NCBI GenBank assembly: GCA_965208105.1
Contig: OZ242318.1
Span: forward strand, 1,440,001-1,504,000
Direction: 5' to 3'
DNA length: 64,000 bases
Source: Candidatus Latescibacterota bacterium
GTDB taxonomy: Bacteria; Latescibacterota; UBA2968; UBA8231
A program made the translations under genes and the position numbers. Positions 55,361 through 58,447 of the stretch are shown in pieces; position 1 is the first letter of the stretch, and each line of letters begins with the position of its first letter. The notes under the pieces are model-generated. The model was not told the origin of the DNA. It saw only the letters and a program-made list of their open reading frames with translations, and did not search any database.

Positions 55361-58300
55361 ATGAGTCTTTCTTTGAAGGCGCCGTGGCACAAGATTTCGT
55401 GGGATGCATTCGTGCAGAAGGGATTGCCCGACCTGTTGGCGGAGCGGATGCCGCTGGCGGGATACCGGGTGGTGTCGAAGGACGAGTACGTCTGTGAATT
55501 GCGCCTTGGGATCCAGGGAGGTCAGGAGGTCTTCTACGCGAACATTCCCCAGCCCGACGAATGGGGCCGGTTCAAGGTGGACGGCTTTTTCCGAATGGTT
55601 GTTCCGGCGCCGACGGAGGTGGATCTCGAGCGTGCCGAGATCCGCTGTGTGGGCGAGCAATTGCTCGATTATATCGCCCGGCGGCTGGAAAACATGCCGG
55701 TTATGCCGGGAGGTGCTGTCGCAACATTGATGCCGCTGGGGGATTGGATCCACGCATTTTTTACAGACGAACCCACCTCCCAGTATTTGCAGGCGACCAA
55801 CCTGCACGATATGTACGTCCACCTGCGCCGGCTGAACATGATCCCCATTTTCGGCGAGGCCACGGAGGGGGTGGAAAATTTCTATCATCCATCGCACCAC
55901 GGACGGGTCTGTCCTTACTGCACTCCGGAAGGACCGAATCTCGGGCGGATCCTGGAGGTGGCTCAGGGGGCGGCCATCCGCGAAGGCAAGCTGGTGATCG
56001 AGGACGACGCGCCTCGAAAGCGGCTGGGCATCGGTGCTTCGATGGTTCCCTTCCTGGAACACAACGACAGCAACCGGGTTCTGATGGGGGTGAATATGAT
56101 GCGCCAGTGGATTGGCGCGCCTGGACCCGACATGCCGCGCGACGAGCAGGGCGCCTGGCACGACTATCACGTCCGATACGACGGCAGGGAAGCGGAATCG
56201 GAACCCGCGATGGTGCAAACGGGGCTCGAACCGGACGACCCGCATTTCTGGACGGGATACAACCTGCTGACCGCCTTCATGGCCTGGAACGGGGACGCAC
56301 TCGAAGACGCCCTCGTGATGAGCGCATCCGCGGCCGGGCGCATGACGCTGCCCGATCCCGTCGAGCCGGGCGACAAACTGAGCAATCGACACGGCTTCAA
56401 GGGAGTGGTGTCGCGGATTGTGCGGGACGAAGAGATGCCCAGATTGTCCGACGGCACCCCGGTTGAACTCATCGTCAGCGTGTGCGGTCTGCCGTCGCGG
56501 CTGAACATCGGCCAGCTGCGGGAAGCCGTCGCCGGGCGCATTGCGAAGGCCGAGGGAAAGCCGCTTGTCGTTCCCGTGCTCGAGGCGCCGAAGGACGACG
56601 AGATTCGCGCCCGCCTGAAGGCCCGCGGGCTCGCGCAGGATGGAATGGATTCTTTGACCTTGAATGGTGAAACGCTGCCGCGCCGCACCACGGTGGGGTG
56701 GGTCTACTGGGGGCGCACCTTTCATCTGGCCGCGGACAAGATTCACGCGGCGGTAACGCCGGACCAACCCTGCCAGGAGTTGGATGAGGCTGATTTTCTG
56801 GCGCTGCAGGAGGCGGGTGCATTCGGGGTCGTGGGCGACCTGTTCAACACCTGCGCCAGGGACCGGAGCGATTCCCATACCCTGGCCGGCCGCGTCGCCT
56901 CGGGACCCGTTGCCGCTGCAGCCCCCTCCCCCCAGTTCGACGATCTTGTGAACGAGTTGTCGAAAGCCGGGGTGGCCGTCGAGCTGGGTGAACACGGGGC
57001 GCGGTTTTCGCTGAGACGGGGTGGAGAGTTGGACCTTGCCCTGCCGGTCCCGCACCCGTGGCTGCCGGGACATTCGCTGATCCACGTGGGCGGGAATGAC
57101 GTGCCCGGCGCACTGCGGCAGTCGAACAGGCGCCTGAGCGAGATGATCGCCAGTGATGCGCCGGAGGTGCTGGTGCGGCGCGCCCTTGAAACCCTGTCCG
57201 GGCGCGTTCGCTCATATTGCCGCTTGCCGCGATTGAGATTTCGGGCGCGCACCTTGTTCAGCGGGCGTTCGGTGGCCGTACCCGCCCCGGAATTGAGATA
57301 CGATCAGGTCGGTGTGCCCGAAAAGATGGCGTGGGCCTTGTTCGGACCGTTCGCCGCGCGTACCGTGGGCGGCGAAGCAGTGGACCGGAGGTCGAAAGTG
57401 GCCAGGGAAGCACTGGATGCAGCCATGGCCGATCTTTGGGCCGTGGTCCTGCGCAAACCCACGGTTTCGCCGACGGCATTCGTGGCCTGCCAGCCGCTGC
57501 GCGTCGAGGGAAACGCCATTCGCGTTTCCGTGTCGAATTGCCATATGCTGGATATGGACTTTGACGGTGACCAGGTGGCGGTCTTCGTGCCGGTTACCGA
57601 GGCCGGCCAGCGCTCGGCCGCGGATCGCCTGTCGGCAGTCGCGCACCTTGCCCGGGACCCGGGCCTGATCGCCCGCGAAAAAATTCACCCAATGCACGAC
57701 GCCATGTTCGGTCTGGCGTACACCAGCATGACGGACGAAGGTCTGGGGCAGATTGGAGCGATCGTCGGGGAAGAGATCGAGCGCGAGGGATTGTTCGTCG
57801 GCAAGAATCAGGTGATGGCCTGGCTGGCGAACGCGATGGCAGGCGATGGGGCTGAAGCCGCATTGAATATGGCGGCGCAACTGCGGGAAAGGGGATTTGA
57901 AGCCGCGCGTAAAACCGGCGCTTCGATGAGCGCGTTCATCGGCTCGTCCCTCCATTGCCCCGATCCTCCCAAGGGCGATGGCCCGGACGTCTGGCGCGAC
58001 TATCCCGACGAGGTATCGGCGATGTTGGCGCAGTTTCGCGGGTTTGACGACGACGACCTCGGGATTCCCGCCCTCCTGGCCCAGTGCGGCGCGCGGGGAA
58101 ACTGGCAGCAGATCAGGCTATACGTGGCACCTCAGGGCGTAGCCCGGAACGCCCTGGGCGGATTCACGCCGCTGAAGCACGGATTTAGAGAAGGGCTCAC
58201 CCCGGAGGAGCTTTTTGCGCGGTCGTTTGCCGCGCGCTGGGGTCTGGCCAACGCCCTGGCCGAGATGATGGCGATCCAGAGCGACCTGGAAACCCGGGGC

Positions 58301-58447
58301 GCTCCCGCCGGCTACGGGGTTCTGGCGCGGGCGCGCAGGTCGGAAACACCGGGCTTCGTATTCGCCCGCGCCGCGGAAAAGGGCGAGAGCGATCCATTGA
58401 CCGACGAGTACAGCCGGTTATTCGCGGGGTTGGGGATTGACGGTTGA
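55361..58447 (+). CDS. Single-chain, minimised RNA polymerase beta-beta' fusion protein
   Basis: Collinear beta motifs ([80 protein letters not shown]), then beta' motifs ([36 protein letters not shown]); AGGAGG RBS. Confidence 0.9.

Follow-up and report, generated by a model that had tools for sequence, protein, structure and literature searches.

In the canonical bacterial RNA polymerase, beta and beta' are separate chains, assembled with omega on an alpha dimer. Relatives of the cellular enzyme that consist of one chain are rare, and those that have been studied (YonO, the yeast plasmid enzyme and QDE-1) are either very distant from the bacterial enzyme or free of sigma. Natural fusions of complete housekeeping beta and beta' subunits, one after the other in a single frame, are represented by the models NF011417 and NF007172 (2839-2890 positions). 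Reduced beta and beta' subunits occur in the non-virion RNA polymerases of the jumbo phages AR9 and phiKZ, which are phage-encoded, consist of several unfused polypeptides and use phage-specific specificity subunits. The excerpted description of YonO, from the Bacillus prophage SPbeta, presents a single chain of ~100 kDa with a DxDGD loop, a non-essential extra polymerase that has few of the residues common to multisubunit enzymes and transcribes late phage genes (PMC5467207). It has no trigger-loop homology, yet its synthesis is as efficient as that of a multisubunit enzyme and highly processive, and hydrolysis is undetectable; the same excerpt regards the trigger loop as central to intrinsic cleavage (PMC5467207). 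The partial source on Orf6 of the Kluyveromyces lactis plasmid pGKL2 reports an Rpb2::Rpb1 fusion of 982 aa in which about half of each parent is deleted, with barrels, bridge helix and fork kept and no trigger, rudder or lid (PMC2919709).

We analysed a window of 64,000 nt of contig OZ242318.1 (GCA_965208105.1), forward strand, and all coordinates are positions in it (Table 1). It holds a gene for a fused, minimal beta-beta' polymerase and, directly upstream on the same strand, a gene for an ECF sigma factor. The literature searched yielded no published description of this polymerase family or of an ECF sigma factor paired with an RNA polymerase homologue, although Iyer & Aravind 2012 (J Struct Biol) may bear on it; an obligate pairing of an ECF sigma with a single-chain mini-polymerase was likewise not found there. 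The main text and one supplement of the ECF reclassification paper, as excerpted, do not mention a neighbour with RNA polymerase domains.

Table 1. Features of the sigma-polymerase locus (positions in the 64,000-nt window)
Feature	Position	Strand	Basis or remark
Candidate ECF-type promoter, TGAACC-N13-CGGTGTC	54709..54734	+	ends 20 nt before sigma start codon; putative promoter activity
ECF sigma-70-family sigma factor gene, 196 aa (P0270), TTG start	54755..55345	+	Pfam, NCBIfam
Fused minimal beta-beta' RNA polymerase gene	55358..58447	+	1029 aa from TTG 55358
Beta-like half, aa 1-544	55358..56989	+	structural alignment and family HMM
Glu-Asp pair, aa 316-317, beta-side metal-B carboxylates	56303..56308	+	conservation; role according to excerpt of PMC2919709
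NRHGFKG basic loop, aa 343-349, followed by R353	56384..56404	+	aligns to GRHGNKG of solved beta chains
Antiparallel helix pair, aa 584-598 and 603-620, beta' clamp helices	57107..57217	+	DSSP of model, HMM alignment
LRKPT, aa 698-702, beta' NRAPT equivalent	57449..57463	+	sequence; host beta' NRAPT at residue 443
DMDFDGD, aa 732-738, metal-A loop	57551..57571	+	sequence; host beta' NADFDGD at residue 477
Bridge helix, aa 949-980	58202..58297	+	one unbroken 32-residue helix in AlphaFold model
Bridge-helix motif [12 protein letters not shown], aa 958-969	58229-58264	+	translation
C-terminal block, aa 988-1029, last conserved beta' segment	58319..58444	+	weak HMM match, family conservation
C-terminal motif [15 protein letters not shown], aa 1000-1014	58355-58399	+	translation

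A single chain built from reduced beta and beta' cores

The polymerase gene is a single frame without stops (translation), has a GC3 of 0.77 and encodes a fusion of ~115 kDa. The ATG at 55361 is the likelier start, judging from the AGGAGG at 55349-55354 ahead of it and from the resulting length of 1028 aa, which most homologues have. Full-length homologues number in the hundreds. Pfam Rpb2_3, Rpb2_6 and Rpb1_2 are all matched (RNA_pol_Rpb2_6, 137.5 bits against a cut-off of 23.4; RNA_pol_Rpb1_2, 52.5 against 25.3). The best sequence matches in the PDB are bacterial beta (1.4e-47) and beta' (2.6e-24) chains; the alignment to Thermus beta' covers both the NRAPT and the NADFDGD blocks, and the clamp-helix segment gives a weak Thermus match at 541-574.

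The AlphaFold model (pLDDT 94.4, pTM 0.92) was compared with solved structures using VIA-align. Residues 1-544 superimpose on beta chain 6j9e_C (Z 26.9, rmsd 2.9, 519 aligned) and residues 544-1029 on beta' (Z 16.9), spanning residues 6-1260 of chain 6edt_D. Isolated DPBB domains match aa 633-763 with Z 6-7, and two double-psi barrels face one active site. Single-chain two-barrel enzymes score far lower, with Z values of 10.7 for QDE-1, 9.2 for P74 gp62, 7.1 for P23-45 gp96 and 6.6 for the crAss-like phage enzyme. The Pfam scores, the Thermus beta' alignment and the superposition of the model identify these matches as homologous rather than due to chance. The stretch for which the sequence-only reading had proposed an altered active site is the beta'-derived catalytic half of a single-chain RNA polymerase in which trimmed bacterial beta and beta' cores are joined.

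The chain keeps its two double-psi barrels and the residues of two-metal catalysis, along with the bridge helix, clamp helices, fork, F-loop and switch 2. We take the beta-like half to consist of a beta1-type N-terminal domain, the fork region, the beta-side double-psi barrel and a C-terminal clamp piece; the domain names, including those of the missing lobe and flap segments, are our assignment. On the beta' side, the HMM alignment to the host chain begins at residue 286, in the clamp-helix segment, whose column pattern in the family is AN.RL.R.L...AP..L. In bacterial RNA polymerase the clamp helices are where region 2 of sigma normally docks.

The losses are large. Matches of the family HMM to host beta are confined to 401-536, 602-662, 748-778 and 1034-1268, and host beta 159-400 and 779-1033, as well as host beta' 799-1308, have no counterpart in the fused chain, in which the ED block and the basic loop are only ~10 residues apart. 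We take host beta 779-1033 to be the flap, whose tip anchors sigma region 4. The bridge helix had been read from the sequence as only its first part: its N-terminal half does align to host beta', up to residue 798 where the HMM alignment ends, and its C-terminal half is poorly conserved across the family, but the model contains the full helix. Between it and the C-terminal block, which the HMM aligns only weakly to host beta' 1309-1341 (-3.0 bits), ~510 host residues including the trigger loop are absent. The chain has thus lost the trigger loop together with the host segments carrying the lobe, flap, jaw, most of the beta' N-terminus and the secondary-channel rim helices. We presume that these domain names apply, with zinc finger, lid and rudder for the beta' N-terminus.

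Active-site conservation without a trigger loop

The trigger loop is absent from all 72 aligned family members over which conservation was counted: 74-95 residues separate the start of the bridge helix from the C-terminus in 72/72, against 607 in host beta'. The polymerase sequence has no trigger-helix motif of the GEPGTQ type; the GEPGTQLT of host beta', at residue 926, falls within the deleted segment 799-1308. A cryptic trigger loop after the bridge helix was considered and rejected, as the model predicts no helical hairpin following helix 949-980 and every member has only this short stretch up to its C-terminus.

The catalytic residues, on the other hand, are widely kept. The DMDFDGD and LRKPT motifs are real in translation, with all three Asp and the Arg in place, and the metal-A triad, for which the family consensus is NADFDGD, is conserved in the homologues (D734 in 70/72, D736 in 70/72, D738 in 69/72). 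The metal-B pair is present in 63/72 (E316) and 67/72 (D317), and the basic loop in 72/72 (R344), 69/72 (H345) and 68/72 (K348). R249 is kept in 71 members and R913 in 67; in the C-terminal block R991 and A992 are each kept in 71/72, P998 in 70/72 and A1005 in 72/72. All seven core residues are intact in 57 of the 72. In the NRAPT block, P701 is found in 65/72 and R699, the equivalent of E. coli beta' R425, in 62/72, being replaced in the other 10. All eight residues in the excerpted list of invariant two-barrel residues (PMC2919709) are present: D734, D736, D738, D317, K348, R353, R699 and P701. Position 353 varies in the family (R46/Q8/A7/K3), and R353 is an Arg in place of Lys, as in some solved bacterial beta chains. 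The column aligned to the arginine of host beta GQRFGEM (funnel/switch-3) is less constant, with Arg in only 25/72 and Glu here. Two members, P0136 and P0192, have lost the whole Asp triad and are still full-length, which hints at a role independent of catalysis.

The Asn of NADFDGD, beta' N458, is indeed Asp in this protein, but this does not define the family. Position 732 is N42/D20/E4/Q3/G2/S1 and changes back and forth among relatives, with D at 83%, 61% and 56% identity and N at 78% and 72%. Judged from the alignment, Asp before DFDGD behaves as a tolerated, lineage-variable substitution of little consequence. The observation made from the sequence is confirmed, with the Asp corrected to a variable position of the family. 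With the triad conserved and the trigger loop gone throughout, the structural premise of the sequence-only reading holds, while the functions derived from it are unsupported, so that the reading as a whole is partly supported.

Sigma factor, promoter and distribution of the pair

The upstream gene encodes an ECF sigma factor, with regions 2 and 4 only and all matches above the family cut-offs (Sigma70_r2, 3.8e-15, 55.9 bits, cut-off 24; Sigma70_r4_2, 1.4e-14, 53.9 bits, cut-off 25.7; TIGR02937, 112.7 bits, cut-off 42.9). In 18/19 related loci, in addition to the window, the sigma gene is preceded by the same motif, GAACY-N12-14-YGSYGTC or CCGTC. In a PWM scan of the host genome the operon promoter ranks first (27.6 bits); the highest-scoring intergenic site besides it, with 21.8 bits and ahead of an accA homologue, was taken as chance rather than as a sigma target. 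The strict motif has three matches in the same genome, of which one is the operon promoter and two fall within long open frames, and 15 in five other genomes, namely five operon promoters and 10 inside stop-free frames of at least 120 aa; the stop-free-frame test is crude, and a reversed-pattern control for the strict motif gave 4 matches. Only one convincing copy per genome was thus seen in the six genomes scanned. The motif does not recur ahead of the polymerase gene, not even at loci where the two genes lie 1.3-2.4 kb apart, and a search of three loci with a gap between the genes against Rfam gave no matches. In several relatives the stop and start codons of the two genes overlap. Sigma and polymerase genes thus appear, on this genomic pattern, to form a two-gene operon driven by an ECF-type promoter, which the sigma factor itself most likely recognizes in a positive autoregulatory loop.

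Short contigs of RNA library X20 lie on both genes, a weak hint of expression, since DNA is possible in such libraries. The library sequences are contigs only, so that stretches of the operon lacking them, such as 56114-56515, carry no meaning.

The pairing is strict. A sigma homologue lies upstream on the same strand in all 19 related loci with upstream DNA, over polymerase identities of 29-83%, and sigma identity tracks polymerase identity across them. The polymerase is found in 25/61 relatives, all 25 of which have the sigma factor (E<=1e-35); of the 36 without it, 35 also lack sigma, the lone exception having its sigma gene 400 nt from a contig end. One genome (G059) has two copies of each gene. 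Within the phylum the polymerase occurs patchily, in 64 of 168 genomes. The host has complete rpoB and rpoC genes at other places in its genome, which score 1799 and 1769 bits and so pass the equivalog cut-offs, and the fused polymerase is an accessory extra copy beside normal rpoBC.

The surroundings of the pair show little else in common. All-against-all BLAST of the ORFs at 18 loci, with Pfam on the recurrent ones, found no conserved third gene but only generic enzymes (GFO/IDH/MocA, PhyH), and the neighbours in the window are metabolic genes. No anti-sigma gene was present at the loci examined; the polymerase is the sole conserved neighbour of sigma. Among the PADLOC 2.0 defence models no family matched the polymerase, and sigma had one marginal HTH-type match (8.7e-05). 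In PHROGs, the polymerase matches RNA polymerase beta/beta' families only. Viral contigs gave no relatives when searched with the single protein; when searched with the alignment, the long matches among the best 80 of 260 distant relatives are only 20-25% identical, and none is therefore a family member. Tblastn against 50,697 phage records matched 43 records, none covering 80% of the query; Bacillus phage is absent among the matches listed, and this search provides no direct sequence comparison with YonO.

Possible functions and comparison with known systems

We hypothesize that the protein is an accessory, trigger-loop-less, single-chain RNA polymerase that uses rNTPs and is co-expressed with a sigma factor of its own, which probably directs it; we give this reading about an even chance. 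Host RNA polymerase with this sigma would fire the operon promoter, sigma and mini-polymerase would be produced together, sigma would dock on the retained clamp helices, and the complex would carry out DNA-templated RNA synthesis from rNTPs. With the trigger loop and the secondary-channel rim missing, such an enzyme would be expected to show neither intrinsic nor Gre-type cleavage of its transcripts, to make more errors and not to respond to regulators and inhibitors acting through these parts. A predicted sigma-polymerase complex scores 0.53, against 0.00 for the best of 3 controls, with at least 40% of contacts shared between runs and a partner pLDDT of 66, and lends weak support. Of solved complexes 116/157 reached the mark that it passes, as did 2/215 mismatched pairs; scores of 0.60 or less include only 18 of those 157 and both passing mismatches, and, sigma-RNA polymerase complexes having been solved already, the pass may reflect likeness rather than binding. 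Other observations count against this reading. Without the flap segment the canonical holoenzyme geometry cannot form; the promoter spacing is that of an ordinary ECF promoter and, as a sequence pattern, fits host RNA polymerase plus sigma without requiring a mini-holoenzyme; and, with one promoter copy per genome, a mini-polymerase using the same motif would transcribe its own operon only, leaving its output unexplained. The scarcity of Arg in the GQRFGEM column, the replacement of R699 in 10 members and the two members lacking the triad are hints in the same direction. A bolder form of the hypothesis makes sigma and the 115-kDa chain a self-contained, sigma-programmed transcription machine beside the host enzyme, the smallest sigma-dependent RNA polymerase known, insensitive to factors and horizontally spread among several phyla; this is possible, but we consider it somewhat doubtful. 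The insensitivity would concern factors or inhibitors acting through the trigger loop, secondary channel, flap or jaw.

Alternatively, sigma may only switch the operon on through host RNA polymerase, the mini-polymerase then working free of sigma on another template, such as RNA or single-stranded DNA, initiating at ends or primers like QDE-1 and other stripped-down two-barrel enzymes and making antisense, double-stranded or primer RNAs. The canonical promoter geometry, the single promoter per genome with no sigma targets seen beyond the operon, and the unconserved funnel/switch-3 arginine would all suit this, as would the alignment of QDE-1 across both barrels and the absence of the flap, lid, rudder and zipper segments, which handle duplex DNA and separate the RNA. 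We nevertheless consider it unlikely: the clamp helices persist with a conserved pattern, the two genes are inherited together too strictly and overlap at stop and start too often for regulation alone, and the nearest relatives in sequence and structure are DNA-dependent bacterial enzymes. Moreover, in the excerpted reports YonO (PMC5467207) and the yeast plasmid enzyme (PMC2919709) are heavily stripped and still transcribe DNA.

The functions proposed by the sequence-only reading, namely slow synthesis, relaxed sugar choice or short products of a primase-like or signalling kind, or else a nuclease, appear improbable. In their favour, the trigger loop is indeed missing, this protein has Asp at position 732, the R425 equivalent is replaced in 10 members and short products are compatible with all measurements. 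However, a column that is mostly Asn and flips among close relatives gives no basis for relaxed sugar use, and the partial source on the E. coli enzyme names beta' R425, present here as R699, as the major sugar selector, N458S shifting selectivity ~4- to 5-fold at most (PMC7862312). Slow or short-product synthesis need not follow from a missing trigger loop, given that YonO is fast and processive without homology to it; nor does a nuclease find support, because YonO shows no detectable hydrolysis and a loop central to intrinsic cleavage is what has been lost (both from the excerpt of PMC5467207). Primase-like or signalling roles sit poorly with an obligatory ECF partner, which points to promoter-linked transcription, and with the lack of a linked cyclic-oligonucleotide effector or defence gene among the PADLOC families and at the conserved loci. 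One could also imagine a polymerase mimic that binds the ECF sigma on its clamp helices as an unusual anti-sigma or sigma buffer, catalysis being secondary or vestigial. Translational coupling is typical of sigma/anti-sigma pairs; the coupling of these two genes, the place of the polymerase as sole conserved neighbour where an anti-sigma gene is absent, and the full-length members without the triad would agree with it, and the complex prediction would do so weakly, with the same caveat about solved complexes. Still, most members conserve catalytic residues, NTP-contacting arginines, fork and bridge helix, which would be costly and needless in a decoy, and we know of no precedent for an anti-sigma of 1029 aa; we regard it as quite improbable.

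Whichever role applies, the family is close enough to bacterial beta/beta' for residue-by-residue comparison, naturally lacks the trigger loop and most accessory modules, and is tied genetically to a sigma factor. Should it prove active, it would be a natural experiment on the parts of RNA polymerase needed for catalysis, promoter opening and use of sigma, a compact candidate for orthogonal transcription and, for ECF sigma factors, a partner of a new type. As it is accessory, patchy and present in several phyla, its role could uncover an unrecognized layer of bacterial gene expression.

Compared with known systems, the protein is like bacterial beta/beta' in its barrels, GRHGNKG-type loop, ED pair, NRAPT and NADFDGD blocks, fork, switch 2, F-loop, bridge helix, clamp helices and C-terminal beta' block, and in its best sequence and structure matches. 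It differs from the host subunits, and from the canonical enzyme, in being one chain of 1029 aa instead of two of 1272 and 1386 aa, and it falls below the cut-offs of both equivalog models (TIGR02013, 179.9 bits against 801.15; TIGR02386, 100.3 against 963.5). The full-length fusions share its order and single frame and match it at 1e-49 to 1e-52, but it is about one third of their length and reaches 178.7 and 168.2 bits where the cut-offs are 4632 and 5372. The jumbo-phage enzymes resemble its beta-like part (AR9 7s00_C, Z 25.3; phiKZ 7ogp_C, Z 21.1) and differ in their divided, phage-borne make-up. With ECF sigma/anti-sigma operons the locus has in common a two-domain ECF sigma, an autoregulatory promoter of the GAAC...CGTC type and a co-transcribed, often translationally coupled partner, which here is a polymerase homologue instead of a membrane or zinc anti-sigma. 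Orf6 of pGKL2 (PMC2919709, in excerpt) has the same beta-then-beta' order and a similar size; compared by description only, it is set apart by its eukaryotic plasmid, its Rpb1/Rpb2 origin, a small extra subunit and the lack of a sigma. YonO is similar as a single-chain, non-essential extra polymerase with no trigger-loop homology; going by its description only, our polymerase is set apart from it in being chromosomal, tied to a sigma factor and clearly derived from bacterial beta/beta' (E 1e-47).

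A reduced beta–beta′ paralogue and its family

The mini-polymerase is encoded by one open frame with a GC3 of 0.77, whose start is likely the ATG at 55361, 6 bases 3′ of AGGAGG. Because it combines Pfam Rpb2 and Rpb1 matches with piecemeal, far sub-cut-off matches to the NCBIfam rpoB and rpoC equivalogs (179.9 bits against a cut-off of 801, and 100.3 bits against 963), the protein is a fusion, beta-like in its N-terminal half and beta′-like in its C-terminal half. Every motif listed in the sequence-only reading is found in the translation, and Thermus beta′ aligns with it over the NRAPT/NADFDGD region and also over the F-loop and the first half of the bridge helix. 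The fused gene is an extra paralogue, because the 4.85-Mb contig that holds it also carries, at 4.74 Mb, full-length rpoB (1799 bits) and rpoC (1769 bits).

Features of the sigma–polymerase locus (nt, window positions; aa, polymerase residues)
Feature	Position	Strand	Remarks
ECF-type promoter motif, TGAACC-N13-CGGTGTC	54709–54734 nt		upstream of sigma gene
ECF sigma gene	54755–55345 nt	+	196 aa; ends 12 bases 5′ of polymerase gene
Mini-polymerase gene	55358–58447 nt	+	single open frame, 1029 aa
RNA_pol_Rpb2_3	142–206 aa		Pfam, exceeds gathering score
Rpb2_6 (best stretch)	335–465 aa		Pfam, exceeds gathering score
Rpb1_2 (best stretch)	696–752 aa		Pfam, exceeds gathering score
LRKPT	698–702 aa
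DMDFDGD	732–738 aa
Bridge-helix motif	958–969 aa		12 residues
C-terminal beta′ motif	1000–1014 aa		15 residues

The family is large and unnamed. Of 8000 candidates scored in a word-indexed search, 765 matched at E ≤ 1e-3; the 120 listed measure 593–1067 aa and are 42–96% identical to the query, and among the matches listed the named ones are "hypothetical protein" from MAGs of Gemmatimonadota, Armatimonadetes or Chloroflexi. An exhaustive search raised the number at E ≤ 1e-3 to 8538, of which 378 reached E ≤ 1e-30; the weaker matches are ordinary beta/beta′. Our family alignment joins the query to 71 relatives, namely 64 full-length representatives from the exhaustive search (945–1101 aa) and 7 closer proteins from the word-indexed one, leaving out fragments and proteins above 1900 aa. 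In five genomes (G037, G039, G045, G053 and G054) the match splits at about aa 458–477 within an unbroken frame of 1055–1130 aa, hence an insertion at the beta/beta′ junction. Other fused beta–beta′ proteins include Atlas clusters of 1221–1787 aa with both Rpb2_6 and Rpb1_2, and four long proteins of 1948–2522 aa (P0254, P0256, P0258 and P0265).

Within a phylum-wide sample, the polymerase was present in 64 of 168 genomes. Copies in another family of the same class (g19, 15 of 15 genomes) share 78% identity with the gene, whereas in its own family, with the gene in 6 of 36 genomes, most copies reach just 44–47%, a pattern that suggests horizontal transfer or old paralogy. PADLOC returned no match, and no family member was found in the viral contigs and phage records searched. 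Fused beta–beta′ proteins outside the family also occur there, many viral contigs giving a single 3.4–4.4-kb match over query residues 178–966, at 20–25% identity. Neighbours in the window are metabolic (Ldh_2, MR_MLE, a xylose-isomerase-like TIM barrel, Rieske, a di-haem oxidoreductase and polyphosphate kinase), and no conserved third gene was found across the related loci compared.

Active site and trigger loop

Conservation of the Asp triad across homologues is borne out by the alignment: D734 and D736 are each kept in 70 of 72 members and D738 in 69. The NRAPT block (R699 62/72, P701 65/72), the beta-side basic loop (R344 72/72, K348 68/72), the ED pair (E316 63/72, D317 67/72) and the NTP-contacting arginines (R249 71/72, R913 67/72) are likewise retained; position 353 varies (R46/Q8/A7/K3). 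In 57 of 72 members none of seven core residues is altered. In two full-length proteins, P0136 (1065 aa) and P0192 (1039 aa), the basic-loop Lys and the entire catalytic Asp triad are gone, and a third, P0124, reads DFDGN and lacks K348 and R699; judged from their residues, they may be derivatives without catalytic activity or copies in decay.

The exchange of Asn for Asp, to which the sequence-only reading had attached weight, is present in the query and turns out to be a minor one. Its column holds N in 42 members, D in 20, E in 4, Q in 3, G in 2 and S in 1, around a family consensus of NADFDGD, and it toggles freely, since relatives at 83%, 61% and 56% identity carry D and those at 78% and 72% carry N. 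For the E. coli enzyme, PMC7862312 names beta′ R425 as the main selector against 2′-dNTPs; N458S costs about 4-fold in selectivity at the binding step and has little effect at incorporation. The R425 equivalent is retained here.

The loss of the trigger loop proved real and family-wide. From the start of the bridge helix to the C-terminus there are 74–95 residues in 72 of 72 members, while the host beta′ has 607 residues past its bridge-helix GARKG and carries GEPGTQLTLRTFH at residue 926. In a confident AlphaFold model built on the family alignment (mean pLDDT 94.4, pTM 0.92), the bridge helix is continuous at aa 949–980 and is followed by just three short helices (988–994, 998–1008 and 1017–1022). 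The family HMM matches host beta solely at 401–536, 602–662, 748–778 and 1034–1268, plus a weak 132–158, and host beta′ at 286–501 and 583–798, plus a weak 1309–1341 (−3.0 bits). By the usual domain maps, the missing beta pieces correspond to the lobe and flap, and those of beta′ to most of the N-terminus (zinc finger, lid, rudder), the secondary-channel rim helices, the trigger loop and the jaw. The polymerase is a conserved two-barrel core devoid of a trigger loop, and is probably catalytically competent.

Partnership with an ECF sigma factor

The strict linkage to an ECF sigma factor is the notable result. The upstream protein matches Sigma70_r2 (3.8e-15), Sigma70_r4_2 (1.4e-14) and TIGR02937 (112.7 bits, cut-off 42.9). 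We compared 20 related loci: 14 chosen from 31 rows of the search of relatives' genomes, with 8-kb flanks, and 6 from a genome-contig scan (two Latescibacterota, Poribacteria, Caldilineaceae and two Spirochaetales). By tblastn, all 19 loci that have upstream DNA carry a sigma homologue 5′ of the polymerase gene and in the same orientation; the remaining locus (L012) begins within the polymerase gene. The homologue adjoins or overlaps the polymerase gene in 16, with a stop/start overlap in L008, L106, L108, L109 and L113, and lies 1.3–2.4 kb away in L100, L101 and L102. Sigma identity tracks polymerase identity (about 80/78%, 46–54/38–47% and 34/29%). Among 61 genomes (the host's and those of 60 relatives) the polymerase occurs in 25 and the sigma orthologue (E ≤ 1e-35) in 26, including 25 of the 25 polymerase-positive ones; in the extra genome, G005, sigma lies 400 nt from a contig end that would cut off the polymerase gene. 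The 8.4-Mb genome G059 has two divergent copies of the pair, whose polymerases share 48% and 42% identity with the query.

In 18 of 19 loci, the region 5′ of the sigma gene holds a GAACY element followed after 12–14 nt by YGSYGTC or CCGTC, 33–269 nt from the start; the motif in L011 deviates slightly, and G059 has the exact 13-nt spacing in its second copy only. A second promoter copy ahead of the polymerase gene was found at none of the loci compared, three with inserted genes among them, so the two genes make up a single operon. Since the promoter is of typical ECF type, autoregulation by sigma is suggested. In the genomes scanned, the motif reveals no regulon other than the operon itself. 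The host genome has three occurrences of the strict pattern, the operon promoter and two within long open frames, and the operon promoter is the top site of a PWM scan (27.6 bits). Second among intergenic sites, at 21.8 bits, is one 5′ of an accA homologue, which was rejected as a further target, being probably due to chance. Five other genomes each show the operon promoter and together ten further sites, all inside open frames, against four for a reversed control.

Directly 5′ of the −35 element, an AT-rich stretch (54680–54710, with TATATAAT) recurs in L100, a locus from the same genus, and is missing from more distant loci; its role may be that of an UP-like element or of a separate −10 element of the sigma-70 type. 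In L100 (5987–7762, +) and L102 (11124–12941, −), from different genera, a same-strand ABC exporter gene (fused ABC_membrane and ABC_tran, 592 and 606 aa) separates sigma from polymerase, in DNA of 46% G+C against locus averages of 48–59%; L101 (6725–7897, +) has there a 391-aa ORF with no Pfam match. Such genes may be cargo acquired by the operon. Contigs from one RNA-library run fall on sigma (54841–55289) and on the polymerase gene (55435–55975, 56546–56923, 57568–57789 and 57912–58176), a weak hint of transcription, as they are 229–378 nt long with 2–20 mismatches each, their strand and ends are unreadable and such libraries can contain DNA. Public runs with this DNA carry labels of sponge or marine metagenomes, and named contigs with the module come from MAGs of Poribacteria, Latescibacterota, Caldilineaceae, Spirochaetales and Gemmatimonadota.

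Polymerase helices at aa 584–598 and 603–620 correspond to the beta′ clamp helices, the main site for sigma region 2, and keep a patterned conservation; the flap segment, the region 4 site, is absent. A complex predicted from residues 230–1029 and sigma, with separate alignments, scored 0.53 (runs 0.54, 0.53 and 0.49; best of three controls 0.00), with contact agreement between runs of at least 40% and a partner pLDDT of 66. Of 157 solved complexes, 116 attain the mark for such predictions, as do 2 of 215 mismatched pairs; with a score of 0.60 or less, just 18 of those 157 attain it, along with both passing mismatches. The value may reflect likeness to sigma–RNAP complexes already solved. It is a weak pointer to binding. 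The linker between sigma regions 2 and 4 threads the polymerase cleft in ECF factors; in this clade it has an invariant Pro (P112) followed by W-[ML]-[IV]-[DE] (W114 in at least 90%). Further conserved features particular to this clade, in the sigma alignment (54755–55342), are QWSG.GS after region 2, RRREQP and an acidic run.

Proposed function and kinship

As the most likely working, we hypothesize that sigma with host RNAP would fire the operon promoter, that the co-made sigma would dock on the retained clamp helices and that the mini-polymerase would then carry out DNA-templated RNA synthesis from rNTPs. The main weakness is that a single promoter is visible per genome, leaving the output of a sigma-directed mini-holoenzyme unexplained, and this keeps three alternatives alive. 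Sigma-independent action on RNA or single-stranded templates would accord with the lone promoter, and we regard it as unlikely. A sigma-binding mimic would suit the two catalytically dead members; we find it very doubtful. The slow, short-product or relaxed-sugar enzyme of the sequence-only reading seems to us rather improbable, because a missing trigger loop need not imply slow or abortive synthesis: in PMC5467207, YonO lacks trigger-loop homology, yet it equals the cellular enzyme in speed and is more processive and more error-prone, with hydrolysis absent, and section 5 of PMC2919709 describes a yeast plasmid Rpb2::Rpb1 fusion that also does without trigger, lid and rudder.

Full-text literature searches found neither a description of the family nor a pairing of an ECF sigma factor with an RNAP homologue, and the main text and one supplement of the ECF reclassification paper do not mention such a partner.

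Structural comparison favours descent from bacterial beta/beta′. In VIA-align, model residues 1–544 superpose on beta (6j9e_C) with Z 26.9 (rmsd 2.9, 519 aligned, 32% identity) and residues 544–1029 on beta′ (6edt_D) with Z 16.9 (rmsd 3.0, 473 aligned, chain range 6–1260), and the best Foldseek matches are bacterial and plastid beta chains. The single-chain two-barrel enzymes score far below: QDE-1 (Z 10.7), P74 gp62 (9.2), P23-45 gp96 (7.1) and the crAss-like phage enzyme (6.6). On the predicted structure, therefore, the family is best described as a reduced derivative of bacterial beta/beta′ and not as a YonO- or QDE-1-like lineage.
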